Part shown: positions 7,550 through 62,616 of the stretch, one piece after another
Numbering within the stretch: position 1 is the stretch's first letter
How the letters are laid out: each line of letters opens with the position of its first letter
NCBI GenBank assembly: GCA_049515915.1
Contig: JBEKTP010000003.1
Coordinates: 735 to 64,734 of the forward strand
Direction: 5' to 3'
Length of the DNA: 64,000 nucleotides
Origin: Patescibacteria group bacterium
GTDB lineage: Bacteria; Patescibacteriota; UBA1384; UBA12157; JAENIV01
Program-made: the position numbers and the translations under genes
The notes under the pieces: generated by a model
What the model saw: the letters and a program-made list of their open reading frames with translations, nothing else
Told to the model about the DNA's origin: nothing
Databases searched by the model: none

Positions 7550-9199
<1,650 letters not shown>

Positions 9200-9320
9200 G
9201 CAGGAGACTTACAAATCTCAAAATTTAGGTAAAAAACACTATAAAAGAAGACCCTTCTGAGCTTGCTTTGGGCGGCTTGCCCTGAGCGTAGTCGAAGGGT
9301 TTTCTTTTGATTAGAAAAAG

Positions 9321-9382
9321 GGCGGCCAGCTGCGTTGCAGCTGGCCGCCTGTAGTCCGTGCATCGCACGGACGGGGACCTCA
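9321..9382. repeat. double-hairpin element, family A copy 1
   Basis: GGCGGCCAGCTGC-gtt-GCAGCTGGCCGCC (13-bp stem), then GTCCGTGC-atc-GCACGGAC, then GGGGACCTCA. Near-identical copy at 11203-11269. On the minus strand it is followed by a T-run, so it looks like an intrinsic terminator. Confidence 0.7.
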
Positions 9383-9462
9383 AGTTCGTAGTTCAGCTCG
9401 ACCGAAATCTTGACATCATGGTTTGGCCGAGGCTGTACTGTGCACGGCGTGATACTACTACG

Positions 9463-10242
9463 TTATCGCTCTGGCCCTTGTAACGTATCGCTCCTGAAGT
9501 GCCTTCTCATCGGTGGAACGAACGGCGGCGAGTAGCTGACCGAGACAAAAACTCTTTTTTGCTCGGCCAACAGCGCCTTGATCGCTTGATCGATCACTTC
9601 CACGTTCTCCGTGAGGTTCTCTATGAGAATCTTGCGGATGGCACGTTCCAGATCCTCGCACATGGAATCAAAGCCTGTTGGAGAGAAATCGTAATCGGTG
9701 GCCTTGATGAAAAACGATGCCTCCGCTCTTCGGTCCATGGAGTCTTTCGCTTCGATTCCACTGATGGTTCTGGCGGTGGAATAGAAGATGTGACCCTTTA
9801 GTCGCCAGATCCAGCTGCCACAGAAAGGCCAGTGGGTCTTCTTACCGATCCAGATGCCGACGATCTCTTTGCCTTTCTGGGCCACCTCGCGGGCTTTGAA
9901 TAATTCATCGAGCTCGTCGATGAACTGTCTCTTGTATCCCAGGTAGGCGATATTCACGCACAGGGCACACACGATCATCGCCACAATCCACATAATCACT
10001 CGCGTTGTAATAATCGGATGGTTGTAGTGGGCGGCGAGGATAGCCGCGGCAAGCACGGCCAGTGAGCCCAAGATAGTCCAAGCGCCGATTGAACGATCGT
10101 ATTTCTTGGACCGCTCGTTGATATGCGGGTACTCACGGTACCACTCGATCACGTTACCCCACCGGAGTGGGAGAGAGCCTGTCGAGCCAAGAGTGACGAT
10201 CGTCAGAACTACCTCAATCACGTCTATCAGCTTTTCCGGCAT
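9463..10242 (-). CDS. hypothetical membrane protein (about 3 TM N-terminal, about 150-aa soluble C-terminal domain), GC-rich cassette
   Basis: Start set at MPEKLIDV with AAAAGGAG upstream. Own TTGACA-17-TATATAAT promoter at about 10317-10348 (minus strand). Confidence 0.6.
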   Translation of the reverse strand: MPEKLIDVIEVVLTIVTLGSTGSLPLRWGNVIEWYREYPHINERSKKYDRSIGAWTILGSLAVLAAAILAAHYNHPIITTRVIMWIVAMIVCALCVNIAYLGYKRQFIDELDELFKAREVAQKGKEIVGIWIGKKTHWPFCGSWIWRLKGHIFYSTARTISGIEAKDSMDRRAEASFFIKATDYDFSPTGFDSMCEDLERAIRKILIENLTENVEVIDQAIKALLAEQKRVFVSVSYSPPFVPPMRRHFRSDTLQGPER

Positions 10243-10316
10243 TTGCGGCTCCTTTTGCCAGCAATCGGTTGGATTGTGGGGCATTGGCCCCACCGATTGC
10301 CGAGGCATTCGATTGT

Positions 10317-10348
10317 ATTATATAAGAGTTCTCAAGTCAATTGTCAAC
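10317..10348 (-). promoter_or_regulatory. sigma70-like promoter (TTGACA-17-TATATAAT) for 9463-10242
   Basis: Read on the minus strand. Preceded by the GGCCCGCCACCCGGCGGGCC hairpin that terminates the upstream gene. Confidence 0.5.
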
Positions 10349-10408
10349 AAAGTTAATAAGATGAAGGCCCGCCGGGTGGCGGGCCGAGAAGTCATGATAG
10401 TCGATGAA

Positions 10409-11083
10409 CTATCGGTGGAGGATCTTCGGCGCGGACATAATCCGCTTGGCTGCTTCGCCCGCGCGGTCGCTGGGTTCACCGAGCTGTTCTTTCACTGCGT
10501 CGTTGTAGAGAGATTCTGTAATCGCGAGCAGAGCATAGTGCGCTTCCGCGAGCGACTCATCGCGCGAAAAGGTATCGTCTGCGCGGATTCTCGGGATGAT
10601 CAACTCAATCTCGCCACGGTTGAAGAAGAAGCCCCATACGGGAGTGATCCCGAAGCCCGCCAGTTCGATACTGGTTGGGTAGAATTCGCCAAGGTGCTTT
10701 TTCATCCCGGGGCACTTGGCGAAAGCTTCTTTACCCAGCTCGTGATAGATCGTCGCCATCGCCCAGACGGCTGCCAGGTCAGTGAACGTCCGTGTGTGAA
10801 ACTGGGCGCTCATTGTTCTTTCGCCCTCAACTTTGACAGCGCGGAGTTGACCTTGGCTATGTTCTCCGCGGATCAGCGCCCCGTGGTGATAGTAGTCAAA
10901 CAACAGGATTGTTCGGGGGCTTAAGGGGATACTCTTACCGCGCGGAGGGGTTCCATCGAAACGGGCCAGCTGGAGGCCGAATTCCGCTGATTCGAGTTGA
11001 CCGATATCGATGTTGTCATCACTGGGCGAGAAGTCGGGCAATCGAAACCGGTTAATCTCGACGACAAGAAGCGTATGTCTCAT
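10409..11083 (-). CDS. hypothetical 224-aa protein (GC-rich cassette)
   Basis: AAAGAGGAAG RBS. TTGACA-16-TATATT promoter (minus strand) at about 11140-11175. No recognisable domain. Confidence 0.5.
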   Translation of the reverse strand: MRHTLLVVEINRFRLPDFSPSDDNIDIGQLESAEFGLQLARFDGTPPRGKSIPLSPRTILLFDYYHHGALIRGEHSQGQLRAVKVEGERTMSAQFHTRTFTDLAAVWAMATIYHELGKEAFAKCPGMKKHLGEFYPTSIELAGFGITPVWGFFFNRGEIELIIPRIRADDTFSRDESLAEAHYALLAITESLYNDAVKEQLGEPSDRAGEAAKRIMSAPKILHR

Positions 11084-11202
11084 CTTCTTCCTCTTTCGGG
11101 CGAGGTGCCCACGGTGTATTCCGGTCAGAGCCGGTAGCTAAAATATATTTTAAAATGAGAATTTGTCAACAAAAAACAGATTTTTTCTCTTAGATAAGAG
11201 AA

Positions 11203-11269
11203 GACGGCCAGCTGCGTTGCAGCTGGCCGTCTGTAGTCCGTGCAAAACATCACACGGACGGGGACCTCA
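11203..11269. repeat. double-hairpin element, family A copy 2
   Basis: GACGGCCAGCTGC-gtt-GCAGCTGGCCGTC. Relative to copy 1 it has a G-C to A-T compensatory pair in the stem. Second hairpin GTCCGTG-loop10-CACGGAC, then GGGGACCTCA, whose last 3 nt are the stop codon of 11267-12100. Confidence 0.7.
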
Positions 11270-12100
11270 TTTGAAATGCAAACCCAACTCTGCATCCGTA
11301 ACCGGCGTGGCCCCATCAGCGGCCGCAGACTCCTCGCTAGTTTCGCCTTTCGGCGGGATGTTGAAGATCTCCGCGCCGAGCTTGATACTCTTGACTCTGG
11401 CGATGGCTCGAGGATCAAATCGAAAGCTGTTGACCAGGTTGCAGACCCTCTCTTCGGTGGGATTTTCGAGCTCGAGGAGAGCCTCGATGAACGCCTTGTA
11501 GGTTTGGTCGACGATTACATCGTAGCTTTCTGGCGGTATCGCCCAGAAATTGTCAAAGCTGGAGTCGGGGATGAAGCTCGTCACAGTAGAGGCAACGGCC
11601 CCGCCTTTCTCCGGTGCCAGAGCCAGCGGCTTCAGCGGAAGGGCTTTCTCGCGTTTGGTGCGCACGGCGCCGTAGAAGAACATATTGCCATCGATGTTGG
11701 CCGACTTGCCCGGTTCGAGGTAGATCCAGGTCTTTCCGAGGATCAACCAGCCTGGGCCATAAGCCCTTCCCCAATGTTCCTCGGGCTCGGGTGCTGTGAA
11801 CCAGCCGAACAGCCGACCCAAAAGGGGGAGGACCGTTGCCGTCAACGCGAAGACGATGGTGAGAGAGCGTGATTTCTCATGATTGGTGGGTAGTGTGAAT
11901 GTTGCTAACAAGCATACGACAGCAAGAGCTAGGACGATCACAGAGACACTAATGGCGGTGTTTGTGATCACACACAGTGCCATGTCGTTGTGGCCCGGCA
12001 CTTTTCCCCTTAGGGTGGTTCTCCCATGGATTTCGCGCATCAGATAGATGCTGACGACAGCGAGAACCAAGACAGTCAGACAAAAGGCGACTTCGGACAT
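11267..12100 (-). CDS. hypothetical membrane protein (4 TM N-terminal, soluble C-terminal domain), GC-rich cassette
   Basis: Start set at MSEVAFCL with AAAGGAGAG upstream. Stop codon embedded in the end of repeat A2. Confidence 0.6.
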   Translation of the reverse strand: MSEVAFCLTVLVLAVVSIYLMREIHGRTTLRGKVPGHNDMALCVITNTAISVSVIVLALAVVCLLATFTLPTNHEKSRSLTIVFALTATVLPLLGRLFGWFTAPEPEEHWGRAYGPGWLILGKTWIYLEPGKSANIDGNMFFYGAVRTKREKALPLKPLALAPEKGGAVASTVTSFIPDSSFDNFWAIPPESYDVIVDQTYKAFIEALLELENPTEERVCNLVNSFRFDPRAIARVKSIKLGAEIFNIPPKGETSEESAAADGATPVTDAELGLHFK

Positions 12101-12240
12101 CGCGGCTCTCCTTTGCTTGCCGGGGTTGTATGGGGCGGTATGGCCCGCCGGCAAGACAAGGAATGGGGCGAAACGCTCCGACGGAGCTTGAGCCGATTAT
12201 ATCTCGAGAACGTTTAAATGTAAATAGTATTTAATATCGT

Positions 12241-18838: not shown

Positions 18839-19207
18839 ATGGTGGTTAACTGGATTTTGCCGTTAGCGGCCATATTGGCGCTGGCCAGCACTAAACGGCG
18901 GGCGCCGAAGACGCAACCGCTACCCCCCGATTACCACGTGCATCCGGACGAGCCCGAGGACTTTACCATCCTCACGATGGTGATGCGAACGGATGCTGAC
19001 TGGACAAGAGACGAGATCTTCCAAGTCTGCCGGTTGATCGCGCCCAAAAGCGTCAGCCGTCATCCGGACCATCCTCGCGTTCTGTTCTTGCCGGGACGCG
19101 GCTATCAGCGCGAGCTGATTACGGCTGTGCTCGGCCACGAGCACTTCGATCTGGACGAAGTGGCCAAGGGAGATCCGGCTCTGCCCTTCCTGGCCATTTT
19201 TGTCTAG
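18839..19207 (+). CDS. hypothetical secreted/membrane-anchored 122-aa protein (GC-rich cassette)
   Basis: GAAAGGAAGGG RBS. N-terminal hydrophobic signal-like segment. TTGATT-17-TATAAA promoter in AT-rich DNA at about 18770-18805. GGCGGCGGTCTCATCGCCGCC hairpin terminator at 19235-19256. Confidence 0.5.
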   Translation: MVVNWILPLAAILALASTKRRAPKTQPLPPDYHVHPDEPEDFTILTMVMRTDADWTRDEIFQVCRLIAPKSVSRHPDHPRVLFLPGRGYQRELITAVLGHEHFDLDEVAKGDPALPFLAIFV

Positions 19208-19330
19208 CTGGCTTCGCCAGTGTTGACATCAAGGCGGCGGTCTCATCGCCGCCTTTCTCTTATATTTATAAAAGGAAGGGCGGCAGGACTTCTGTCCTGC
19301 CGCCGTTATAATCTGGGCGAGAAACGCTGG

Positions 19331-19828
19331 TTAGGCAGTGGCCATCTCTGGGATCATGGCATCCACGGCTCGCATCACCGCCGCGGCGGTCTGATCGCTG
19401 ACTCTGAGTGGCGCTCGGAGCTCGGGCGCGGCGCGGAAGATGTCTCTGAGAGTAAGGACGAGCTCGCCGTAGTATGGCCTTTCTCGGAGGTCGCAGTCGA
19501 CGCTGAAAGTGGCGACGGGCTCTTTCCAGCAAAGTGTGAACAACCGTTCGTACTTTGGATGGCCGAGCCCGAGCTTGGCCAGCTCGCTGAAGATGACGAA
19601 CTGGTGTGGCTCGACGAGCAAGACGAGTCGCAGGTTGGTCACCTCGAGCTTCTTGTACAGCCGGAAGCCGCCGGTATTATACAGTGGCGCAAACTCCATT
19701 TTCTCCGTCGGCGAACCCGTGATGGCGAACACGACAGAAGTCGTCAGCTTCTCGAGGTCGCTCGCGTCAACCTCTTTCCCCAGAATTGGAATCAAGGCAC
19801 GGCAAACTGATTTGATCCCAACTTTCAT
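19331..19828 (-). CDS. hypothetical 165-aa protein (GC-rich cassette)
   Basis: Start MKVGIKSV with AGGAGAGAG upstream. Convergent with 18839-19207. GGGCGGCAGGAC...GTCCTGCCGCC hairpin terminator. Confidence 0.5.
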   Translation of the reverse strand: MKVGIKSVCRALIPILGKEVDASDLEKLTTSVVFAITGSPTEKMEFAPLYNTGGFRLYKKLEVTNLRLVLLVEPHQFVIFSELAKLGLGHPKYERLFTLCWKEPVATFSVDCDLRERPYYGELVLTLRDIFRAAPELRAPLRVSDQTAAAVMRAVDAMIPEMATA

Positions 19829-20152
19829 CTGTCTCTCTCCTCGCCTTAAAATGTTCGGCACAGTCAAATCTAGCTTTATATTGATTAGTCAACAACCACT
19901 TGTAAAGACCCCTTTCAAAAAATAGGGAACCAATAAGTATTGAGCAACGACGGCGGTTTGGAGCACACACTGACAAGGGCGGATCGAACGCGCTGAAAGC
20001 GCTTTCGGCCGCCAAGAAAGTTTCGGCGAAAGCCGAGCAGGACTCGGGTGGGTGATGTATTGCCCGCCTTTTTTGTTAGAAAGTCGCCGGGGAATTGACA
20101 GAAGGTAAATCATATTATATAGTGCAACTAATCTGAACTGGTGAGGTGATTC

Positions 20153-20671
20153 ATGAAATACCGTATCAAAATCGGAGCCGTAGAACGTGAAGTCGTCATG
20201 GATGGTAAGGGTTGGGCAGTCAGCGCGGTGATCCTCGCCATCATCGAGCAGCATCTCCATGGAGTACCGGCGGCGGCCATCAGCCTGGAGATCGGGGATA
20301 AGACTCTCGATCCGAACGGAGGGATCGATGTCCAGCTCGATAAGCTTAGGGCTACCAAAGTGATTGAGAACTTGCCGGTAATCACCGTGCAGATCGATCA
20401 AGAAATGGTGGCCGAGGAGCAACGGAGAATCACCGAAGCCAGCCGACCCGAAGCGCTCTCGACGGTGCATCAGGGGAAGGTTCGGTTCGTCCGGGTCAAC
20501 GACAAAACCCGGACCGACGTGGCCAGCATCCGGCGGCTGGCTCTCTCATCACGGGCGAGCCGGCGTTGTGGCTTTCTCTGGCTCTCGCGGCGCTACTGCG
20601 TCGCCTTCGGTGATAAACCGGTGCAGTGGCTGAGAGAGATGGAAATCGCCAGCGAGCTCTTGCGGAAGTGA
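20153..20671 (+). CDS. hypothetical 172-aa protein (GC-rich cassette)
   Basis: GGTGAGGTGA RBS. TTGACA-17-TATTAT promoter at about 20094-20125. Terminator hairpin 20700-20738. Confidence 0.5.
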   Translation: MKYRIKIGAVEREVVMDGKGWAVSAVILAIIEQHLHGVPAAAISLEIGDKTLDPNGGIDVQLDKLRATKVIENLPVITVQIDQEMVAEEQRRITEASRPEALSTVHQGKVRFVRVNDKTRTDVASIRRLALSSRASRRCGFLWLSRRYCVAFGDKPVQWLREMEIASELLRK

Positions 20672-20699
20672 GAGCTTCTCGGCCGCGGGGCCGGAAAAA

Positions 20700-20738
20700 C
20701 AGGCAGGGCGCGTATACGCGCCCTGCCTTCTCTGTTTT
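20700..20738 (+). terminator. intrinsic terminator
   Basis: CAGGCAGGGCGCGTATACGCGCCCTGCCT hairpin followed by TCTCTGTTTT. Confidence 0.5.
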
Positions 20739-20816
20739 AAAGAGTTCCAGAGAAAATTGTTATTTTGGTGATATAATAAAATAAAGTTATAAATAAATTA
20801 TTCTCAAGGAGGGTTC

Positions 20817-21347
20817 GTGAGAAAAAGGAAAGCTCTTACCTTGTGGGTCATTGTTTTAATTGTCGTTTTGGTTTTGGCGGCTGGTTTTGCGGTTTACTAT
20901 TTTGTCCAAAAAACTCCGAGTAAAACTGCGACCGCTCCCAACGCTCCATCGGCGACCAGCTCCACTAAATCTTCGGGTAAACAAATGGTTGGTTGTCAAG
21001 TTTATCAAAACCTCAATGCTAATGGCGCCACCGCTTTCAAAACGGGAGATGATTCTTTGCTTCCAGCTGATGTTGCGGCGTGGAAAGGAACAAATACTTT
21101 GTGCGGCAGCTCGGCCGATTTGGATTACGTTTATTATTCGACCACTCAAGACGATCAGACTCTCTTGAGCTACTATCGCCAGAAACTAACCGCCAGAGGA
21201 TGCACGGTTGAAGATTTAGAAACTCCGCCAGACGGTCAAGTTGGCCCTTTTGCCTACGTGGAATCTTTTACTTGCTCCGATGGATATCATGGCCAGGTCG
21301 GGACGGACTTTGCTTACAATACTTATTGGGTTCAATTTACAAAATAG
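20817..21347 (+). CDS. hypothetical membrane-anchored extracytoplasmic protein
   Basis: AAGGAGGG RBS with GTG start. One N-terminal TM, then a Ser/Thr/Ala-rich linker, then a Cys-containing domain. Terminator hairpin 21360-21394. Confidence 0.5.
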   Translation: MRKRKALTLWVIVLIVVLVLAAGFAVYYFVQKTPSKTATAPNAPSATSSTKSSGKQMVGCQVYQNLNANGATAFKTGDDSLLPADVAAWKGTNTLCGSSADLDYVYYSTTQDDQTLLSYYRQKLTARGCTVEDLETPPDGQVGPFAYVESFTCSDGYHGQVGTDFAYNTYWVQFTK

Positions 21348-25993: not shown

Positions 25994-26174
25994 ATCCCGA
26001 TTCTACCATATCGTCTCGCTTATTGATACGTCTGGGAAGGTTTTTTCTTTCAGAAGCCAGTCGGGGGCTTGTCCCGAGCCACGTCGAGGGTTGATTTTTT
26101 TGATGATATATGGTAAGCTCGAGCCAACTTGCCAACGTACCGGCAAAATTCAAGGTAAAGGGGTGCGCCCCAAA

Positions 26175-26792
26175 ATGGCAGCAAAGGAAACGGCCGTACA
26201 GAAGTTTATCGATGAGGTGCTGGGTCCGAACCTCATAATGCCGGAGGACCCGAACCACCCGTGGTGGTTTCAGATTCTGAAGGCGCGGCTCTGGGACGTG
26301 GAAAGACGTGAAAAGCGTCTGATCTGGCGGCTGTTGGGAGAAATGAGATTTCTCAAAGGCTGCCCGACTGGTGATCCGACACATAACCACCACAGTTTGA
26401 GGCAGGATTTCAGCCTAGACGTGCTCTTGCCCTATGTGCAGGGCTACTTCCACGTGGTCCCGGATATGACGGGCATTGATGGTTCCGCCGGAGAACTGAG
26501 TTTCTGGGGATACATCCGTGATGGTCGAACTGTGCTCGGCAGAGTTTCATTCTCGGTAGAAAAGAACGGGGCTGAAGAATACTGGAAAGCCAGTAACCTC
26601 TGGGTCTTACTGAAGGACCCGGAGGATATCGTGATCAAGCTCGGCGTCACAGCCAAAGGAATGTTCCTCGCAATCTGCGAGGACCATAAGTGGGTGCTGA
26701 AGCGCCGCCAGGAGTACGAGGCGGAGACAGCGACATGGGTGGACGGGATGGAGCTTGAGAACAGTGAGCTTATCAACGGGATCGGAGGGTGA
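26175..26792 (+). CDS. hypothetical 205-aa protein (GC-rich cassette)
   Basis: Start MAAKETAV with AAAGGGG upstream. Stop overlaps the RBS and start region of the next ORF. Confidence 0.5.
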   Translation: MAAKETAVQKFIDEVLGPNLIMPEDPNHPWWFQILKARLWDVERREKRLIWRLLGEMRFLKGCPTGDPTHNHHSLRQDFSLDVLLPYVQGYFHVVPDMTGIDGSAGELSFWGYIRDGRTVLGRVSFSVEKNGAEEYWKASNLWVLLKDPEDIVIKLGVTAKGMFLAICEDHKWVLKRRQEYEAETATWVDGMELENSELINGIGG

Positions 26793-26796
26793 GAGG

Positions 26797-27063
26797 ATGA
26801 AGTACACAGAGTATGAGAGTGTCAAGCAACTCTATGATTCCCTTGCTCGACAGCACGGTCTTTCGCGCGAGCAAGTCGTGATCCGAGAAGATTCAACTGT
26901 CCCTAAGTTGGGACACAGACCTTCGGAGCGGCAGACTGGTCGCATGATGGTGAGTAACGACAGTCACACTATCGTGCGTTTCATCATCGAGGAACTGCGG
27001 GCCCACAAACCGGTCAAGTACCGAGCGTGGGTCTACGACGACCAAAATCATGTGTCCATATAG
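26797..27063 (+). CDS. hypothetical 88-aa protein (GC-rich cassette, translationally coupled)
   Basis: GGAGGGTGAGAGG immediately upstream. Followed by GGCCCCGCCAC...GTGGCGGGGCC terminator at 27091-27130. Confidence 0.45.
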   Translation: MKYTEYESVKQLYDSLARQHGLSREQVVIREDSTVPKLGHRPSERQTGRMMVSNDSHTIVRFIIEELRAHKPVKYRAWVYDDQNHVSI

Positions 27064-27090: not shown

Positions 27091-27130
27091 GGCCCCGCCA
27101 CAAAAGTGGCGGGGCCTTCTCTATTTTATA
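27091..27130 (+). terminator. intrinsic terminator
   Basis: GGCCCCGCCACAAAAGTGGCGGGGCC hairpin followed by TTCTCTATTTT. Confidence 0.5.
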
Positions 27131-27194
27131 GCGTAAATATCCTTGTAAACTACGATTAAAAATTAATCGTAGTTTGATTAGTTCTCAAAAAGGA

Positions 27195-27224
27195 TTGACA
27201 TTATCGAACCAAATTATTTACAAT
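27195..27224 (+). promoter_or_regulatory. sigma70-like promoter TTGACA-17-TTACAAT
   Basis: Lies in AT-rich DNA about 100 nt upstream of the GC-rich OMP-decarboxylase-like gene. Confidence 0.45.
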
Positions 27225-27328
27225 GCGTTTGGAAAGAAAGCTCTAAACTTTGCCGTCGGCAAGTTTGGGGTACGCACCTTAAGTTTTGAATGTGGATTCT
27301 ATTTTACCGCCCAAAGGGCGAGGAGGAG

Positions 27329-28162
27329 ATGACGTTGGCAGGCTGTAGAATTGATAAGCGCGTCGTGATTCTGGCTCTTGATGGTGTCGAAGGCAAGAGA
27401 GCAATGTTGGATACTATTACTCGTGTCATGGACGGCCCGATCGGTCCGTATGTGGCATATGTCAAACTCAATGATGGACTGCACGATAAGGACGGCGGTC
27501 CAAACATTGTCCGCGCGATCCTCGTGGAGCATCCGAAACTGGATGTCTTCGGCGACATCAAGGGTGCCGATGTCTGGGGTACAATCCAGAACATCTGCAA
27601 GCGCTACGATGTCGCACGGATGCTCATGACTATCTCGATCCACGTGGACCACGGCGTCTTCGCGAAGCTGGCAACCACCTATCCGGCGCTAAAGATTGCG
27701 GCGATGGTGGTGCCCACCGACATTGCGAAGAAGGACTTCCTGCGTCGGTACGACATGGAGCCAGCCGAGGCCATGGAAACGTGGTATGGCGGGCTGACTG
27801 ATCTCTACCGCGAAGAACTTGACATCCCGGACGGCTATCCTTCGGAGCTGGTTATTGCCAGCAAAGACATGCTCCCGACTGTGCAGGAGAACTTCCCAGG
27901 AGTCCTCTCGATCACGCCAGGCGTGCGCGACGTCTGGATGGTTGATGCCGATCATCAAAAGCGCACTACAGGTGTCCAGAAAGCACTGGAGCTTGGGGCG
28001 CGGTACGTTGTCATGGGCGCCCAGCTTCTCAAGGGTGCAACTGGCGTAGACGCTAAAGAGAGCCAGGCGCGGACCGTGGTGGAGATCGAGCGCTTTTTCA
28101 ATCCGCCGGACGAGGGCAACGATGCGCTGGCGGGGATACACTACCGCGAGCCGCAGATCTGA
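27329..28162 (+). CDS. orotidine-5'-phosphate decarboxylase-fold protein (PyrF-like; OMPDC/KGPDC/HPS superfamily)
   Basis: GC-rich. VILALDG...YVKLNDG...FGDIKGADV (D-x-K-x-x-D catalytic motif) ... MTISIHV ... ITPGVR ... GARYVVMG. Motif order matches OMP decarboxylase. GGAGGAG RBS. Confidence 0.6.
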   Translation: MTLAGCRIDKRVVILALDGVEGKRAMLDTITRVMDGPIGPYVAYVKLNDGLHDKDGGPNIVRAILVEHPKLDVFGDIKGADVWGTIQNICKRYDVARMLMTISIHVDHGVFAKLATTYPALKIAAMVVPTDIAKKDFLRRYDMEPAEAMETWYGGLTDLYREELDIPDGYPSELVIASKDMLPTVQENFPGVLSITPGVRDVWMVDADHQKRTTGVQKALELGARYVVMGAQLLKGATGVDAKESQARTVVEIERFFNPPDEGNDALAGIHYREPQI

Positions 28163-28264
28163 ACGTCATATCAAGCCGTTAATGACCGACCGAGATCGGT
28201 CAACGGCGCCGCACACCATTACGAAGGGAAGGAGAGGCCAATTTCTGAACAGCGAATCAGGGTT

Positions 28265-28543
28265 TTGAAAACGCCGGTCGGAACGGCGCCAAAATGGGTG
28301 CGCGAGGCTTGGACGGGACTGGAACTTCCCGCCGCTCCTGGATATTGGGGAGTTGTCGGCGTGGCCGCGGCGGCTGATGATACCGAAGGCTATGCCGTCC
28401 ATGCCCACACCGCTTTCTCATCTCTCGAGAGAGATCCCGAAAAAGCGAAAGCGTACGAGTGGTATCTGCAGCATCAGTCCGACCTGTTCCAATCGCATGT
28501 TTACCTGCGATTCGGCAAGCGGTTTTGCGAGTTGGTTACGTAG
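28265..28543 (+). CDS. hypothetical 92-aa protein between the PyrF-like and PRTase genes
   Basis: ORF with apparent TTG start. No clear RBS. Uncertain. Confidence 0.25.
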   Translation: MKTPVGTAPKWVREAWTGLELPAAPGYWGVVGVAAAADDTEGYAVHAHTAFSSLERDPEKAKAYEWYLQHQSDLFQSHVYLRFGKRFCELVT

Positions 28544-28578
28544 TCCATCACCGCTTGGAAAGAGGAGGAGGTGAAGAG

Positions 28579-29340
28579 ATGGCGAATAGTACGTTCAGAA
28601 GCATCCTCGATGTCAGGTCCGCAGAAGGGTTGTGGGCACTGAAGCCCTCGCATTTCGTCGATCGCGAGATTACTATCGGGGAGTTCACGCACATGCTCAA
28701 GCTACGAGACGCCTTCTGGCAGTACGAAGGCGAGCCGCGGCCGGAACAACCGCACGCCCTGACCCGGGACGGCATGTGCACCGACGGGTTCGTTGACACC
28801 CTGAGGCTTCTCTGCTTGTCCAATATCTGCGAAATTCTCGGCGGACAGATGCTGGCGCAGGTGAGGAAAGTAACTGTGTTGAAACCTTTCCAGTGGACCA
28901 TCAGTGCCGCCAACGCCGGAATCGATCTCGGTCACGAAGTTGGTCGGCAGGCGCGAACCAACATCGCCTTCACCGAGAAGGACAAGGATGGCAACCCGAC
29001 GGTCTGGAAGAGATTTACTGTTGCCGAGGGCGAGACAGTCCTGATTGTCAACGAGCTCATGACCACGGCCCATGGCAGTACTTATATGGCCAAGGCAGCT
29101 GTCCGGGACCAGAACAAGGTTCAGCCGGTTCGGTTCATGCCGGTAACGGCCGTGCTCGTCAACCGGTCAGCCGACACGGAGACCCTCGAAGACGGAACGC
29201 CGGTGGTGGCACGTTTCCGCTACCACATGCACACCTATCAGCCAGGCCCAGCCACCTGCAAGTACTGTGCGGCCGGTTCGCCCTCCATTAAGCCGAAGGT
29301 CGAAGGCAACTGGGAGAAGTACTTCGCTTCGGCGATCTGA
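28579..29340 (+). CDS. type I phosphoribosyltransferase (orotate-PRTase-like) with Cys-containing C-terminal extension
   Basis: PRPP-binding motif VLIVNELMTTAHGST (hydrophobic x4, acidic, TTG/A-x-T). N-terminal GEFTHMLKL resembles the OPRTase GEFTLKSG hood. GAGGAGGAGG RBS. Confidence 0.6.
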   Translation: MANSTFRSILDVRSAEGLWALKPSHFVDREITIGEFTHMLKLRDAFWQYEGEPRPEQPHALTRDGMCTDGFVDTLRLLCLSNICEILGGQMLAQVRKVTVLKPFQWTISAANAGIDLGHEVGRQARTNIAFTEKDKDGNPTVWKRFTVAEGETVLIVNELMTTAHGSTYMAKAAVRDQNKVQPVRFMPVTAVLVNRSADTETLEDGTPVVARFRYHMHTYQPGPATCKYCAAGSPSIKPKVEGNWEKYFASAI

Positions 29341-29434
29341 TCACATCAGGCCGGGAATACGAGGTTTGACCTCTGCCCGGCCTTCGCTTTATCCACTTGA
29401 CGGATGGTTTGAGAAGGCTTTTAATTAAAAAAAT

Positions 29435-30580
29435 ATGAAAAAAATTGACGAGTTTAAATTAGCGCTAACCTTTGATGATATTCTCCTTTTGCCGGGCTAC
29501 ACCGATTTTACGCGCGATAAAATTGATCTTTCAACCAATTTAACTAAAAAAATTAAACTCCAAATCCCCTTAGTTTCGGCGCCAATGGATAAGGTGACGG
29601 AAGCAAAAATGGCGGCCGCTTTGGCCGGTTTAGGCGGCCTTGGCATTATTCATCGAAATTTAACGATCAAAGATCAAGCCAACGAAGTTAGGAAAGTCAA
29701 AGCAAAGAATTTATTGGTCGGGGCGGCCATCGGCTCTTCGCCCGGCTTTGAAGACCGCGTCAACGAACTCGTTCGGGCTAAAGTGGATGTGATTGTGATT
29801 GATTCGGCCCACGGTTTTTGTCAATTTGTGATCGAGGCGGTCAAGTTTATCAAGAAAAAATATCCTAAAATGCAAGTCATCGGCGGCAACGTGGCCACTT
29901 TCGAAGGCACTAAAGCGTTAATTAAAGCCGGCGCCGACGGGATTCGAGTGGGCATGGGGCCGGGTTCAATTTGTTCAACCCGGGTCATTTCGGGTATGGG
30001 CGTGCCTCAATTGATGGCCCTTGAAGAATCGGTTCGGGCAGCCAACCCATCCAAAACGCCGATTATGGCCGACGGCGGGATCCAATTTTCCGGCGATATC
30101 GTCAAAGCTTTGGCGATGGGTGCTTCGACGGTGATGATGGGCTCGCTTTTTGGTTCGGCTCTCGAATCGCCCGGTAAAGTGGTGAAATTGACCAAAGATT
30201 CCGTTCCCAGCCGATTTCAAAGTATTTGGAATAGCAAGAACAAAATTTATCTTTTTAAAGAATATCGGGGAATGGGTTCGGTAGCGGCCATTCAAAAGGG
30301 ACAGAAAATTAAATCGGAGGGCGAATTTCATAATAAAGATTACTCTCAGAAAAAAGCACTGGTGGCTGAAGGAGTAGAAGGGTTAGTGCCGGTAAAGGGA
30401 AAGGTCAAAGACCTGGTTGAACAACTGACGGGCGGGATTCTTTCGGGCATGTACTATACGGGCGCAAAATCTATCCCAAAACTCTGGCAAAAGGCGCGTT
30501 TTATTCGGATTACGGAGGCTTCGCTTAAAGAAAGCCATCCGCATAACGTTTTAATTACTAATGGCGGCCAAAATCTGTAG
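29435..30580 (+). CDS. IMP dehydrogenase/GMP reductase family protein (no CBS subdomain)
   Basis: Catalytic loop GSICSTR. Phosphate-binding [17 protein letters not shown]. The 381-aa length implies the CBS insertion is absent. Confidence 0.8.
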
Positions 30581-34605: not shown

Positions 34606-34727
34606 GGTCCTCCTTTTGTTTCGGCAGTATAATAAACTACCTTTTTAATGGTCATTCTAATCTTATCGCGGGAAGGGTAATTTTGTCAAAAATAAACCCG
34701 AAAAGACTCGCCGGGCATGGGTGGGGA

Positions 34728-35834
34728 TGCACAAGTTGAGATACATCGGTAACACTCCTAAAGTTATATTCGGAGGTGTTACCGATGAACAAACCATTGC
34801 CGGCTGAGCTGTTTTGTTACTTTAAGTCAAAACCAATAGTTCTTATCAATCGTCACGAGCGGTGGAAGAAGGTAGCGAAAGAGCAAAAGATCTCCCGCGA
34901 GGCCGCAAAGCGGCTCGAATGGATCATTTTCTATGAAACCAAAGGTGAGTTTAATGCCGTCTTTACTTGTCGCCATTTCGGCATTGCCAGAAAAACTTTC
35001 TACAAATACCTCAACCGTTTCAATCAGAACCCGATTTCACTTGAGGATCATTCCAAAAGACCGTTCAATGTTCGCCAGAAAATGATTACGCTTGAGGAAG
35101 AAACCAGAATCATTTCGCTAAGAAAACGCTATATTTTTTACGGCGCAGAAAAACTCCGAGCAGAGTACAATGAGCTTTATGGCAAGGATATTTCCAGCTG
35201 GAAAATCGGCTACACCATTGCTAAATTCCAGTTATATCCAAACCCAAAAAAGGTTGACAAACATCGGTTACAGATTAAGCGCAACAGGAGAAAACGAAAG
35301 ATCACCGAGCTTAAAAAGAGAAATGAAAACATCTTGGGCCACCTAATCCAGATCGATACGATCGTACTTCATCTGGATGGTCTCAAGCGTTATATTCTCA
35401 CCGCCATCGATACCTACGGCAAGCTGGCCTTTGCCCGGGTCTACCGTAATGCCAGCTCTTACTCGGCGGCTGATTTCTTAGAAAGATTAAACTTCCTTTT
35501 TGACGATCAAATCGTTAATATACAAACAGACAACGGTTCGGAGTTTCTAAAGCACTTTGAGAAAGCCTGCCAGAGTCTCAAAATGGAACATTTCTTCTCC
35601 AGAGCCAGAACTCCTCAAGACAACGCCTATGTCGAACGCTTCAACCAAACCTTACAAAAAGAATGGCTCTCTGAGGGACACTTCCACCCCGACCCCAGCG
35701 TTATGAATGCCAAGCTGACCGACTGGCTTATCCGCTACAACTTCCACCGCCGCCATGCCAGCTTAGGCAATATCTCACCCATCAATTATTGCATCAAAAA
35801 TAGACAACTGTTACCGATGTACTCAACTCGTACA
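34728..35834 (+). mobile_element. IS481-like insertion sequence (DDE rve transposase) with about 25-bp imperfect terminal inverted repeats and 5-bp GGGGA target-site duplication
   Basis: Left inverted repeat TGCACAAGTTGAGATACATCGGTAAC (34728-34753). Right inverted repeat GTTACCGATGTACTCAACTCGTACA (35810-35834), whose reverse complement is TGTACGAGTTGAG-TACATCGGTAAC. GGGGA directly flanks both ends (34723-34727 and 35835-35839). Confidence 0.7.
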
Positions 35835-35843
35835 GGGGATTGA
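34785..35843 (+). CDS. IS481-family transposase (HTH + rve integrase core)
   Basis: DDE core: QIDT..., TAIDTYGKLA..., DNGSEF..., YVERFNQTLQKEW. GGAGG RBS. Stop lies just past the right inverted repeat. Confidence 0.85.
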   Translation: MNKPLPAELFCYFKSKPIVLINRHERWKKVAKEQKISREAAKRLEWIIFYETKGEFNAVFTCRHFGIARKTFYKYLNRFNQNPISLEDHSKRPFNVRQKMITLEEETRIISLRKRYIFYGAEKLRAEYNELYGKDISSWKIGYTIAKFQLYPNPKKVDKHRLQIKRNRRKRKITELKKRNENILGHLIQIDTIVLHLDGLKRYILTAIDTYGKLAFARVYRNASSYSAADFLERLNFLFDDQIVNIQTDNGSEFLKHFEKACQSLKMEHFFSRARTPQDNAYVERFNQTLQKEWLSEGHFHPDPSVMNAKLTDWLIRYNFHRRHASLGNISPINYCIKNRQLLPMYSTRTGD

Positions 35844-57440: not shown

Positions 57441-57666
57441 AATTACCCCTCCAAATTTATTATACCCTCTAAAACTTTAATACAAAAGACCGTCTCGGGT
57501 GAGACGGTCACGGGTAAAAGGGTATATGGTTTGAGTTTACTCGATCGTCACGCCGGCGATTTTATTTTAGATTAAAATTTTTCTGTCATTATGGATTAAG
57601 ATATCATAAAACACCGATTAAAATTTAATCGATGTTTTCAGGAGTAGTTAGAATTAATTCAGTCTA

Positions 57667-58950: not shown

Positions 58951-59118
58951 TTTTCACCTCAAAATTTATTTGTCTTAGATAATCTTACCAAATTTGACGA
59001 AATTCTCAAGCGATTTTTGACCAAAGTGATTTTTTGGAGGGGGACGCCTTGATTATTCGTTAGTTTTATGGTAAAGTATGGTCAGAAATCGCCGTCATCA
59101 ACTCTGAGCGAGGTGAAG

Positions 59119-59541
59119 ATGATGTCTGATTCAAAGAAGACGTGGATTGGGGCGTTGATTTTTGTGACACTGATGGTATGCTGGTATTTCGTGACACGGC
59201 CCTCTGCGACAAGCCAGCCGCCGGGCGCAAGTGCAGTCGCGGCTATTCGGGCTATCGGTCTAGGCGGGCCGTCTTTCGTCCACACATGGACAGGGACGAA
59301 CGAGTTCGGGATGAGCGTGATTCTTATCATCAACGACGGCGGCATGTGTTCGTTCGGCGGTGATCCGCTCAAGTGGAGAGTCGAGGGCAGTACCCTCGTC
59401 ATCTACAAGGACGGGTCCAACTACACTCTCAGAGGGACTCTCTCGAGCGACGGGCACGGGTTGGAGCTGGCCATTCCGTGGAACAGCCCAATTACCGGAA
59501 AGCCGGAGGTACGAACCTACAACTTCGTCCGGCAAGGGTGA
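59119..59541 (+). CDS. hypothetical membrane-anchored 140-aa protein (GC-rich cassette)
   Basis: GAGGTGAAG RBS. N-terminal TM, beta-rich extracytoplasmic domain. Confidence 0.45.
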   Translation: MMSDSKKTWIGALIFVTLMVCWYFVTRPSATSQPPGASAVAAIRAIGLGGPSFVHTWTGTNEFGMSVILIINDGGMCSFGGDPLKWRVEGSTLVIYKDGSNYTLRGTLSSDGHGLELAIPWNSPITGKPEVRTYNFVRQG

Positions 59542-59627
59542 GAAGAATGCGGCGACCAAGGCGTTGTTGTCACCTTCCGCCGCGACGAAAATATCTTGAT
59601 CGGTACTGGAGGGGCGATGCAAGCCGG

Positions 59628-59687
59628 ACTCGGCGGGCTTTAGCCCGCCAGACGAGCTCTGGGGATTTCCCGGAGCTCGTTTTCGTT
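59628..59687 (+). repeat. double-hairpin terminator-like element, family B copy 1
   Basis: GGCGGGC-ttta-GCCCGCC, then ACGAGCTC..GGGGATTTCCC..GAGCTCGT, then TTTTCGTT. Near-identical copy at 61036-61094. Confidence 0.65.
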
Positions 59688-59770
59688 CCAAAGAGAAAAA
59701 TTTGACAGTTAAAATAGTCGTTGTGGTATAGTATTAATACATCAATTTAATGAACTTGACAGGAGGAAAA

Positions 59771-60106
59771 ATGGATCCGAAAGAAAAAAAAGAGATGACG
59801 GAACTTGTTGGCGAGGTAATTGACCGAAAGGTAACACCGCGGTTGGAGAAAATTGAAAAGAAATTATCAGATCACGATAAAAAATTTGAAACGATTATTG
59901 AGCAAGTCGTTAAAAATTCAGAAAACATTACCGATATTAAAGAAGATTTATCGGAACTAAATGAAGAGATGACTGATGTGAAGTATGTAGACGAACGCAT
60001 TGAAACAAAACTGGATTCCTCAATTCGTCGAGAAACCGACTTGGAAGTTAAAACTTCTCAACTTTCCCGCCGCGTTCTCCGGCTGGAATCTAAAAAGACA
60101 AGTTAA
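59771..60106 (+). CDS. small coiled-coil protein
   Basis: GGAGG RBS. Lys/Glu-rich heptad-like sequence. AT-rich host-like composition. Confidence 0.45.
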   Translation: MDPKEKKEMTELVGEVIDRKVTPRLEKIEKKLSDHDKKFETIIEQVVKNSENITDIKEDLSELNEEMTDVKYVDERIETKLDSSIRRETDLEVKTSQLSRRVLRLESKKTS

Positions 60107-60263
60107 TTATCAAATTTTTAATTGAACTCACTAATTATTAAGGGTAATTTTACTAGTCGGCGTTTGTTTTGGCGTTGGGTCTTGATATTTAAGGAATTTT
60201 GAGGTAGAATATAGCCAGAATTACCGATTGTACCACACTCTGCTAAAGAAAGGCGAAAAGACG

Positions 60264-60998
60264 ATGAGGAAGAGAGCAGGGCTGTTGATGTTGCTGGCAG
60301 TGGTTGTTGGTCTGACGATGATACTGGCGGGCTGCGGCGGACACTCGTCGGCGGCGGCGCTGGTGGCCAAATCCGGTGTGACGGCCGAACCTCCGGAAGG
60401 CGCTCCGAGGACGCCATTCAGCCAGGTCAGGACATCAGCCGATGATTCGAATTCGGGGAATTTGGCGCAGTCAGCGAAGGTGGCCAAGATAGCATCTACT
60501 ACTGAAGCCGCGCAGGCTCTCGACCACTTCACGGTTTCGTTGTACGGACTTTCGAGTATGAACGGAGATTCCGAAATAACCGCGCCGCCGGGGTGTGTGA
60601 TCTTTCCATGGATTCATGTGAGAAACATGGGAACCGTGCCAATCACGGGGATCAAGATCGCGATCCGTTCTAATCCCGCCATCACGGTGGCTTATCCGGA
60701 TGATCCTTTCAACAAGAAGTTCATTAAGGCTTTGACGACGTCAGGGGTACCACTTCTCGATGGGCAAACCCGGAAGAATACCATTGGACCGTACAACTCG
60801 AAGTACTATCGGCAAGGTGCCGAAGCAATTTGGTCAGCGCTTGTTGCCGGGCCCAGTGGTGTTGAGGGCGTGATGCCAATTCAGCTGAGCAAACATCTGA
60901 TGCCGGGTACAGACGAACAGCTCCGGTTTACTCTGATCTATAAAGGAGCTGAGAAGGTCGTAGCGGTGGCGACGGTACACGTGATGCACCCAGAATAG
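60264..60998 (+). CDS. hypothetical lipoprotein (GC-rich cassette)
   Basis: Signal peptide with lipobox LAGC (MRKRAGLLMLLAVVVGLTMILAGCGG). Followed 38 nt later by repeat B2. Confidence 0.55.
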   Translation: MRKRAGLLMLLAVVVGLTMILAGCGGHSSAAALVAKSGVTAEPPEGAPRTPFSQVRTSADDSNSGNLAQSAKVAKIASTTEAAQALDHFTVSLYGLSSMNGDSEITAPPGCVIFPWIHVRNMGTVPITGIKIAIRSNPAITVAYPDDPFNKKFIKALTTSGVPLLDGQTRKNTIGPYNSKYYRQGAEAIWSALVAGPSGVEGVMPIQLSKHLMPGTDEQLRFTLIYKGAEKVVAVATVHVMHPE

Positions 60999-61035
60999 CG
61001 AACACTTCGTCGTGACGTGACACGTTGCGGATCGA

Positions 61036-61094
61036 ACTCGGCGGGCTTTAGCCCGCCAGACGAGCTCTGGGATTTCCCGGAGCTCGTTTTCGTT
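61036..61094 (+). repeat. double-hairpin terminator-like element, family B copy 2
   Basis: Same sequence as 59628-59687 apart from a single G deletion in the second loop. Confidence 0.65.
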
Positions 61095-61184
61095 TATCTA
61101 AATTATTATTATGACAGCAATTCTTGTTAATTTCTCGAACTTGTGTTACAATGCGACCAGTTCTTGCACATCAAGGAGAGCGTC

Positions 61185-61457
61185 ATGGAAAGCGGTACGG
61201 CGAAGACGTTAGGAGTTATTTCAGTTGTACTGGGGGCGCTAACAGCCGGTGTCGAAGTGATTGGCGGGCTTTGCTGCGGCTGGATTGTCTGGCCGTTGGC
61301 GATTGCCGCCATCATCCTGGGCATTCTGGCGTGGACCAGCGCCCGGGGCGACCAGACGGCCGCGACTCTGGGCAAGATCGGGATCTGCTTGAGTTTAATC
61401 GTCCCTATCTGGCAGCTGCTGACCGCCACGATCCTGGCCGGTCTTATCCATCGGTAG
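61185..61457 (+). CDS. small membrane protein (DUF4190-like)
   Basis: Two TM helices with CCGW motif. Immediately upstream of the DUF2752-like gene. Confidence 0.4.
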   Translation: MESGTAKTLGVISVVLGALTAGVEVIGGLCCGWIVWPLAIAAIILGILAWTSARGDQTAATLGKIGICLSLIVPIWQLLTATILAGLIHR

Positions 61458-61460
61458 TCA

Positions 61461-61796
61461 GTGATGGATGCGTCAGTCAGGCAAGGTCTGAAAGCGTCAT
61501 TCCTGATCATCGCCGCTATGATGGCGGCAATGATCGGAAGAAGCTTCCTCCTAAACAGCTTTGATCCGCACCTCGCAGTTCTCTCGCGAATTGCACCGAC
61601 AGTGCCGGGTCACCACTGCTTGCTCTGCGGTATGACTCACAGTTTTATGGCCATTTCGCGGGGTGACTTTGGCCAGGCGGTTGCCGCTAATCCCGGCGGC
61701 CCAATGCTGTACTTTTTCTTTTGTCTGGCGGCGGTTGGCGGTCTCGTCGTAATCTTTCGAGATTACATCACTCGCCACCACCGCCACAAGGCCTGA
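61461..61796 (+). CDS. DUF2752-family membrane protein
   Basis: HCLLCGMTHSF (CxxCG-M/L-T) signature between TM helices. Confidence 0.5.
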   Translation: MMDASVRQGLKASFLIIAAMMAAMIGRSFLLNSFDPHLAVLSRIAPTVPGHHCLLCGMTHSFMAISRGDFGQAVAANPGGPMLYFFFCLAAVGGLVVIFRDYITRHHRHKA

Positions 61797-61910
61797 CCGG
61801 CAACAGTCAGGCCTGCTGTTTTAAATTAAACATTAAAGGCACGAAATGTTTCCTTGACATCCTTAAAAAAGAAGAATATATTAAAGGGTCTCATCAAGGA
61901 GGTGAGAATA

Positions 61911-62180
61911 ATGGCCATTCGGCTTGAGCCAGTTGTTGTCGAGCATGCGTGCAATCTTGCGCGTCTCATCCGAGTGATTCATCACAAGTCAAAAACACAG
62001 GACGAAATCCAGGCGAAGTTCGAAGTCTATTTTCGTCGAGTGGCTGATGAGCTTGAAGCACTGGGTGAATCGCCCGACAAAGCCGCCGAGATGGCCCTGG
62101 CGGCAATCAGTGTACTTTTGGACGAGATGAACAAACGCGTCGTAACTAAGGAGGAGAGCAATCAGAGCCCAAGCGCATAG
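61911..62180 (+). CDS. hypothetical 89-aa protein (GC-rich)
   Basis: AAGGAGGTGAG RBS. Confidence 0.4.
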   Translation: MAIRLEPVVVEHACNLARLIRVIHHKSKTQDEIQAKFEVYFRRVADELEALGESPDKAAEMALAAISVLLDEMNKRVVTKEESNQSPSA

Positions 62181-62346
62181 CAAGGGCTCTGCTGTTTAAT
62201 AAAAAATAGTTTGTTAAGCCATTGACTTTTAGATAGTTTTATGGTATAGTTGGGAGTATTTTGAGAATAAGCCAGGCGTCGCCTGACCTCAAAAACACCA
62301 TCCCCGCCTAGCGGGGAGAAACTTGAAAACATAGGAGGAGCCCGCG

Positions 62347-62616
62347 ATGCGGATCTTAGTAGGAATTTGGTGCTACGTCATCGCGATAGCTTTTGTCGCT
62401 ATAATCTGGTACACAATTCCGATGATTATCGGCGACTTCGTTGACTATCGCGTGATGGGGCGATGGATTGATTTGTTCGGCGCCATCTTGGGTATTGTCC
62501 TTGTCGTAGTGCTGATAGCCGCAGCAACGTTTCTTTTCGTTTTGCCCTGGAAACCAGCTGTGATTAAGTTTGTGGTTGACTTGGATCCATCCGATACAGA
62601 AAGGGAAACTAAGTGA
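62347..62616 (+). CDS. hypothetical 2-TM membrane protein (GC-rich)
   Basis: TAGGAGGAG RBS. Stop overlaps the start of the next ORF. Confidence 0.4.
   Translation: MRILVGIWCYVIAIAFVAIIWYTIPMIIGDFVDYRVMGRWIDLFGAILGIVLVVVLIAAATFLFVLPWKPAVIKFVVDLDPSDTERETK

Follow-up and report, generated by a model that had tools for sequence, protein, structure and literature searches.

Two adjacent genes in a 64-kb stretch of Patescibacteria DNA (contig JBEKTP010000003.1; the whole stretch is called the window below) very probably encode divergent forms of PyrF and PyrE, a pair that would convert orotate to uridine 5'-monophosphate (UMP). In the scheme that we propose, the genes form a two-gene operon, pyrF-pyrE, that would be co-transcribed from a promoter at 27195 to a hairpin ending at 29383. 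PyrE would condense orotate and 5-phosphoribosyl 1-pyrophosphate (PRPP) to orotidine 5'-monophosphate (OMP), and PyrF would decarboxylate OMP to UMP. The original prediction, made from the sequence alone, had named such a pair, and evidence from profiles, folds, gene fusion and operons now supports it strongly. The data show directly to which fold and family each protein belongs, that the catalytic residues align, that fused forms exist and that relatives lie in pyr operons; from these we infer the enzymatic activities. Both protein clades are centred on the Patescibacteria and are barely detected by standard models. The two genes are as follows.

27329..28162, + strand: pyrF, predicted OMP decarboxylase (OMPDC) of a divergent clade, 'type A', assigned by profile, fold, fusion and operon context
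28579..29340, + strand: pyrE, predicted orotate phosphoribosyltransferase (OPRT) of a Patescibacteria clade of the pyrE_Therm/HP1257 type, assigned by TIGR01367, fold and operon context

The first gene has an AGGAGG ribosome-binding site 6 nt 5' of its ATG at 27329. Its product carries the type A signature (VKLNDG ... DxKxxDV ... PGVRDxWM ... HQKRTTG ... YVVMGAQ), and all the motifs originally read in it are there (ALDG, VKLNDG, DIKGAD, TPGVR and GARYVVMG). It scores 25.9 bits against the Pfam family PF00215 (OMPdecase), for which the gathering score is 27, 31 against TIGR01740 (cut-off 92.3) and 33.6 against PRK00230 (cut-off 193). When the PDB was searched with a profile of seven family members, the matches were exclusively OMPDCs (best E = 1e-10), with no chain of 3-keto-L-gulonate 6-phosphate decarboxylase (KGPDC) or 3-hexulose 6-phosphate synthase (HPS) at E <= 0.01; likewise, no ribulose monophosphate pathway (RuMP)/HxlA model was among the NCBIfam matches of the window protein. 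Comparison by HHalign of type A with eight canonical, operon-embedded PyrF proteins of Patescibacteria gave a probability of 99.7% and E = 2e-25. Residues D18, K46, D76, K78 and D81, which are invariant in the type A clade, align to D11, K33, D60, K62 and D65 of canonical PyrF; PGxR200 and the loop-7 Gln, Q210, are superposed in the same alignment, and DxKxxD also aligns with OMPDCs in the PDB. Thus, the Asp, Lys and DxKxxD residues of OMPDC hold their places in a profile alignment. The AF2 model (pLDDT 79.7, pTM 0.81) is a (beta/alpha)8 barrel. All 50 of the 50 matches listed by Foldseek against the PDB are OMPDCs or entries that share an OMPDC sequence (best E = 1e-9), so that structural comparison, proposed as a way to tell PyrF from KGPDC and HPS, places the protein among OMPDCs.

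Like the window protein, type-1 PyrF (PF00215; PDB 1eix, 1dbt and 3tr2) has a (beta/alpha)8 barrel with the beta1 Asp, the beta2 Lys, DxKxxD, PG(I/V)R and (D/H)QKR, and its gene lies directly 5' of pyrE, occurs in pyr operons and is found fused to OPRT. The window PyrF differs in having only 15-19% identity to type-1 PyrF, scores below the Pfam and NCBIfam cut-offs, an insertion of ~30 residues in which 145-164 form a long helix, and a tail of ~20 residues at the C-terminus. An exhaustive hidden Markov model (HMM) search of 1.84 billion representatives found 68 type A clusters at E <= 1e-30. In 14 of the 72 top representatives, the type A PyrF is fused to a C-terminal, pyrE_Therm-like phosphoribosyltransferase (PRTase); we read these fusions as a gene-fusion ('Rosetta-stone') link between the two predicted activities. 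The same two activities are coupled in UMP synthase and in OMPDC-OPRT fusions of the PRK05500 type, whereas the window genes are separate, 416 nt apart, and the PRTase domains fused to type A PyrF are only distantly related to the window PyrE (BLAST E = 1e-4 at best). Taken at the level of sequence and modelled fold, 27329-28162 belongs to an OMP decarboxylase clade that is divergent and mostly from Patescibacteria, and its product would decarboxylate OMP. The IMG names for proteins identical to the two window products are OMP decarboxylase and orotate phosphoribosyltransferase, and at least 23 contigs, of several origins, carry the window pyrF allele.

The second gene has a ribosome-binding site, GGAGGAGG, before its ATG at 28579, and the PRPP loop VLIVNELMTTAHGST and the CKYC motif reported earlier are both present in its product. 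TIGR01367 (pyrE_Therm) matches the protein at 48.3 bits (E = 9e-13; cut-off 150.25), and Pfam Pribosyltran gives no match at E <= 1. A PDB search with an 11-member PyrE profile returned four matches, all of them OPRT or UMP synthase, including 4paw, the Helicobacter pylori OPRT HP1257, at 2.9e-17. The 4paw alignment runs through the C-terminal CxxC...IKP...GN tail, to residue 223, and the TIGR01367 alignment extends to position 184 of 187; C227 and C230 are invariant in the PyrE clade. Hence, the CxxC tail, at first described as unusual, is common to 4paw and the TIGR01367 model, and is a hallmark of the pyrE_Therm/HP1257 type of OPRT. In a Foldseek search with the AF2 model (pLDDT 91.6), ranks 1 to 15 were all OPRTs, with 4paw first; adenine and xanthine phosphoribosyltransferases (APRT/XPRT) were weaker and further down. 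The PRTase therefore resembles OPRTs best, with the OPRT hood in place, rather than purine or other PRTases.

HP1257 (4paw) and TIGR01367 are the best sequence and fold match of the window PyrE. They share with it a type-I PRTase core with a hood, a PRPP loop ending in TT-x-x-GS, and the Cys-x-x-Cys ... IKP ... GN tail. The window protein has ~20% identity to HP1257, and differs from it in a conserved N-terminal extension of ~40-55 residues (W47, Y49, G51, P53, H59) and in the replacement of the first acid of the PRPP loop by Asn (VNELMTT). That loop reads VLIVNELMTTAHGS in the window protein, with E159, T162, T163, G166 and S167 invariant. From profile, fold and, decisively, the operon context of its relatives, we assign 28579-29340 as a predicted orotate phosphoribosyltransferase.

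That context comes from related loci, designated here by L-numbers, that we compared with the window. A scan of GTDB species genomes showed that the closer PyrE relatives (30-49% identity) are mainly in metagenome-assembled genomes (MAGs) of Patescibacteria (Saccharibacteria, Kuenenbacteria, Falkowbacteria, Buchananbacteria, Doudnabacteria, Staskawiczbacteria and Parcubacteria), and also in two MAGs labelled Gammaproteobacteria; distant relatives (25-28% identity) are found in Campylobacter and Acidithiobacillus genomes. In L020, L021, L024 and L025, a pyrB ... pyrD-pyrF-pyrE array ends with the gene for the PyrE relative. The L020 array is pyrB-pyrC-pyrK-pyrD-pyrF-pyrE, the pyrD-pyrF-pyrE part is visible in L023, and a full pyrB-pyrC-pyrK-pyrD-pyrF series is followed by the PyrE orthologue in MAGs of Falkowbacteria, Buchananbacteria and Parcubacteria. 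In L010, a PyrE with 44% identity is encoded in pyrF-pyrE-prs-pyrD. Type A pyrF itself adjoins pyrE in the window and in L001, L007, L013 and L015. In L014 and L015, the gene for a type A PyrF with 80% identity follows an aspartate carbamoyltransferase gene (pyrB; TIGR00670, 220 bits), and in L015 it overlaps by 4 nt the gene for a PyrE with 71% identity. In L001, the gene for a PyrF with 67% identity is followed by that for a different PyrE, for which the best model is TIGR00336, at 55 bits and below its cut-off. A literature search on pyrimidine genes of Patescibacteria/CPR and on HP1257 found nothing.

Several observations weigh against this assignment. No Pfam or NCBIfam model scores either window protein above its curated cut-off, and NCBI labels both as hypothetical; the first is 100% identical to 'MAG: hypothetical protein ABSE91_01485 [Patescibacteria group bacterium]'. 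The phosphate-gripper Arg of the G-R motif (R235 in yeast OMPDC, ScOMPDC) is Ala in 7 of the 7 aligned type A members (YVVMGAQ), and the R235A substitution lowers kcat/Km of the yeast enzyme ~19000-fold, or 5.6 kcal/mol (PMC12874384). The Ser of the canonical LTS motif is aligned with Asp (PTD) in the window PyrF. In PyrE, the first acidic position of the PRPP loop is Asn, giving N-E in place of the usual acidic pair. Finally, the 64-kb window contains no prs, no transporter gene and no pyr gene besides pyrG.

Asn occupies the first acidic PRPP-loop position in nearly all members of the PyrE clade, and orthologues with the NE loop are found in full pyr operons. The loop-7 gripper Gln (Q215 of ScOMPDC, in DQxR) is present in the window PyrF as Q210 (HQKR). 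The L010 PyrF (1169-1840) is a canonical type-1 protein (128 bits to PF00215) encoded inside pyrF-pyrE-prs-pyrD, and it too has no gripper Arg, reading VIASQ in place of VIGRP; a pyrimidine role can thus go together with the absence of this Arg. Judging from the sequence, the retained Arg of PGVR and the K-R that follows the Gln might compensate for the lost Arg.

An alternative explanation, which the original prediction had held to be equally open, is that the pair carries out a different nucleotide-modifying chemistry, or is an anti-phage or toxin-like system with a PRTase effector, borne on a mobile cassette. It would fit with the strong divergence of both proteins, below all curated cut-offs, with the missing gripper Arg and the altered PRPP-loop acids, and with the foreign composition of the block and the exchange of the pyrF body between near-identical genomes (see below). 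However, neither protein has a PADLOC match at E <= 1 or a meaningful PHROG match, neither family has relatives in 2.9 million viral contigs, no att-like repeats flank the block, and the neighbours are housekeeping genes. The structural and profile neighbours are OMPDCs or OPRTs, with no KGPDC or HPS match at E <= 0.01, and both the orthologues and the swapped-in pyrF allele of a sister genome lie inside pyrB/C/K/D operons. We therefore consider a different chemistry or a defence role to be very unlikely, and not on a par with PyrF-PyrE function: PADLOC, PHROG and viral relatives are lacking, the PDB profile matches are only OMPDCs and OPRTs, and the relatives lie in canonical pyr operons. An origin in defence systems or phage was likewise rejected, since PADLOC, PHROG and viral-contig scans, the last with both family profiles and with a 205-aa open reading frame (ORF) upstream, were negative.

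The PyrF assignment is reinforced by a replacement in a sister genome, seen in L009 and in L008, a contig of 541934 bp. Its flanks are 92-96% identical to the window on both sides, and the body of pyrF is another sequence.

27338..28113, + strand: segment replaced in L008/L009 by a 'type B' pyrF, delimited by the break in alignment with the window

One junction falls at codon 3 ('...GACGTTG'), next to the start; the other ('GGGCAACGATGCGCTGGCGGG') precedes the stop by 16 codons and lies in the C-terminal tail that both alleles share. The type B protein has 272 aa and belongs to the OMPdecase family (PF00215, 31 bits; PRK13813, 48 bits), and it shows no BLAST similarity to the window PyrF except over the last ~10 residues. 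We examined 80 metagenomic relatives of type B, and many of their genes adjoin pyrE, pyrB, pyrC, pyrK or pyrD; in L103 and L105, the order is pyrB-pyrF(type B)-PRTase, with a PRTase of the window's clade. Because type B, itself a pyr-operon gene, occupies the identical slot in L008/L009, its positional equivalence supports a PyrF role for type A. The type B allele is present in two assemblies, possibly of the same sample. A type-2 pyrF, assigned by motif reading, precedes the same pyrE clade in L018, L019, L027, L030 and L031. Thus, four PyrF lineages (type A, type B, type-1 in L010, L020 and others, and type-2) precede one pyrE clade, and the pyrF-pyrE module behaves as an exchangeable unit. 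Tentatively, we suggest that pyrF is 'hot-swappable' in Patescibacteria, perhaps maintained as a population polymorphism and not the outcome of a single event, and that type A is a natural OMPDC clade working without the gripper Arg; this combined proposal is possible, although we would not put it at even chances. In that case, a type A OMPDC must have another way to bind phosphate or to close the active site.

The genomes differ in other places as well, among them two more stretches that do not align. One, at L008 743-1834 against about 19930-21340 of the window, contains an rve-family transposase gene in the sister genome; the other, of ~1.1 kb, is at L008 16126-17187 against 34711-35835.

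Where the orotate would come from is a separate question. Given the same biochemistry, the pair might be a stand-alone step of orotate salvage in a cell without de novo pyrimidine synthesis, and not the end of a pathway encoded elsewhere in the genome. Many Patescibacteria lack de novo nucleotide synthesis. Only pyrG, at 375-1985 on the minus strand, was found as another pyrimidine gene in the window, as had been said at the outset: Pfam scans of 20 further large ORFs showed no additional pyrimidine gene, and tblastn of the window with PyrB, PyrD, Prs and other PyrE and PyrF types found nothing further. Consistent with salvage, pyrB/C/D, carAB and prs are all missing from the window, none of the best 120 of 2362 PyrB matches is on a contig that carries the locus (541934 bp, 187261 bp and ~90 kb), and the pair has no neighbouring pyr genes in L001, L007 and L013 either. 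On the other hand, pyrB is present in the nearest relatives that are arranged differently: in L015 it adjoins the pair, and in L089 it stands by itself at the same LytR/TsaDE site. Full pyr operons are also found at many Patescibacteria loci. We put stand-alone salvage at slightly under an even chance, and regard a supply of orotate from the environment or a host and its synthesis by pyrB/C/D products encoded elsewhere in the genome as roughly equally probable.

In related Patescibacteria, the pyrimidine genes found between the LytR-family gene and tsaD/tsaE vary from locus to locus. The interval holds pyrF and a different pyrE type in L001 (7836-9627), pyrB-pyrF-pyrE in L014 (3239-6324) and L015, and pyrB alone in L089 (2807-3941).

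The original prediction described a three-gene module, with a small ORF between pyrF and pyrE. The open frame does exist.

28265..28543, + strand: 92-aa ORF between pyrF and pyrE (spacer of 416 nt), unlikely to be a functional gene

Among the loci examined, the spacer and this ORF are confined to the window lineage and the sister genome; the ORF is absent from L015, where pyrF and pyrE overlap, and from L007 and L001, where they are 65-103 nt apart. We found no Pfam, NCBIfam, PADLOC or PHROG family match for it. Comparison with L008, in which the frame is also open, with an in-frame 6-nt indel, gives a dN/dS of 0.86, with 11, 8 and 9 differences over the three codon positions; the values for the same two genomes are 0.07 for pyrE and for the inosine 5'-monophosphate dehydrogenase (IMPDH) gene downstream, and 0.21-0.27 for the ORFs upstream. 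Nor is the spacer structured as RNA (z = -0.55; no Rfam match). In favour of three functional genes, with the small protein as a subunit that regulates the two enzymes or serves as their adaptor, one can cite that the ORF has stayed open in the sister genome through an in-frame indel, that spacer divergence (~10%) is below the synonymous divergence of pyrE (dS 0.37), and that NCBI and IMG both call the ORF as a gene. Yet its high dN/dS goes with substitutions spread evenly over codon positions, its TTG and GTG starts lack a suitably spaced ribosome-binding site, none of the other loci examined has a homologue, pyrF and pyrE overlap in L015 and lie 65-103 nt apart in L001 and L007, and long spurious ORFs are expected in DNA of 58% GC. 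We conclude that three functional genes are improbable, and that the module has two genes, because the 92-aa ORF is lineage-specific, lacks a coding signature and is absent from all other pairs. We also rejected a fusion of pyrF to the ORF by read-through of the TGA, since the two share a reading frame in the window but not in L008.

The imperfect 14-nt inverted repeat 28158-28171 / 28586-28599 (12 of 14 positions complementary) brackets the spacer exactly. Since its right arm falls in conserved pyrE codons, it is probably due to chance.

The following elements lie around the two genes of the proposed transcription unit.

27091..27116, + strand: strong intrinsic terminator, stem of 11 bp (10 of them GC) and then TTCTCTATTT
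27146..27176, no strand assigned: perfect AT-rich palindrome, 13-nt arms and 3-nt spacer, 19 nt 5' of the -35 hexamer
27195..27224, + strand: putative sigma-70-type promoter TTGACA-18-TACAAT, 11 of 12 consensus positions
29348..29383, + strand: terminator-like hairpin after pyrE, -24.2 kcal/mol, z = -2.9

The terminator at 27091-27116 closes an upstream two-gene unit (26175-27063) and marks the left boundary of the pyrF-pyrE unit. Since the upstream ORFs end at a terminator of their own, we treat the pyr pair as a separate transcription unit. The putative promoter is the site first described as TTGACA-17-TTACAAT; the site stands, and its spacer counts 18 nt to TACAAT. It is a consensus match only, and such sites are no commoner in this region than in shuffled sequence. 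At the other end, the module does close with a hairpin, as had been noted, which a simple terminator scanner passed over on account of its long loop. We also rejected the idea that leader or spacer holds a riboswitch or an attenuator: the leader folds with z = -1.1 and the spacer with z = -0.55, and Rfam searches of both (E <= 1) gave only chance matches, far below gathering scores.

The palindrome at 27146-27176 (TAAACTACGATTAAAAATTAATCGTAGTTTG) is kept in L008, and a near-identical one (AAAACACCGATTAAAATTTAATCGATGTTTT) lies at 57608-57638, with genes for a tRNA synthetase and a histidine kinase on either side. Its half-site has 11 matches at <=2 mismatches, against 2.7 expected. By their sequence, the palindromes could be operators or weak bidirectional terminators.

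The segment as a whole is chromosomal DNA of Patescibacteria (Candidate Phyla Radiation, CPR), and Pfam scans identify the surroundings of the pyr pair as housekeeping genes. Neighbours include pyrG and genes for a phosphoglucomutase/phosphomannomutase family member, a class I tRNA synthetase of the Trp/Tyr type, GroEL, DnaE, glutamyl-tRNA synthetase (GluRS), a sigma factor and IMPDH; by synteny, genes for nucleoside-diphosphate kinase (NDK) and thymidylate kinase lie ~9 kb downstream. The IMPDH/GMP-reductase-family gene at 29435-30580 encodes 381 aa and covers the Pfam catalytic model end to end; from its length only, it seems to be without the CBS pair typical of IMPDH.

The pyrF-pyrE module is compositionally foreign. 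The pair has a GC content of 57.6%, against 44.7% in the remainder of the window (+13 points), and GC at third codon positions (GC3) is 0.69 and 0.74 for the two pyr genes, against 0.50 for the neighbouring IMPDH gene. The strong GC richness first noted for both genes is thus real, but the GC-rich block extends further than the module: it begins near 26050, upstream of the pair, and takes in two unrelated ORFs.

26175-26792, + strand: conserved ORF, 205 aa, GC-rich, directly 5' of the pyr unit
26797-27063, + strand: conserved ORF, 88 aa, GC-rich, directly 5' of the pyr unit

The sister genome has both as well, and dN/dS values of 0.21 and 0.27, respectively, indicate purifying selection. Neither has a significant Pfam, NCBIfam, PHROG or PADLOC match, and the viral-contig scan found no viral relative of the 205-aa ORF. 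A functional link of these ORFs to the pyr pair was rejected, their homologues being found only in L008/L009 and the unit having its own terminator. Flanking direct (att-like) repeats were not found around the block, nor was any boundary of a mobile element.

The pyr genes in L001, L007, L015, L020 and L089 are 9-18 GC points above their flanks. The GC excess of pyr genes is thus seen beyond the window, and suggests that such genes were acquired laterally on several occasions. Other GC-rich blocks of the window are at 8000-12200, 19000-21000 and 59000-63000 (49-56% GC, against about 42-45% elsewhere), and long overlapping ORFs at 9463-12154 are without a Pfam match.

The function that we assign to pyrF and pyrE is ordinary biochemistry, carried by two poorly annotated, divergent family members, and current knowledge is not overturned. 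Two features go beyond routine annotation: the clade-wide Ala in place of the gripper Arg, and the pyrF swap at the same position in the sister genome. The type A clade, with Ala at the gripper position, offers a ready-made test of the 'dianion gripper' model of OMPDC. The swap of the pyrF body, together with the four lineages, would show cleanly how, in reduced genomes, a distant homologue of equivalent function can take the place of an enzyme in situ. Patescibacteria usually count as organisms that cannot make pyrimidine nucleotides. NCBI labels both window genes, and the ~70 clusters of their family, 'hypothetical', and their recognition as PyrF and PyrE would alter metabolic reconstructions of Patescibacteria.

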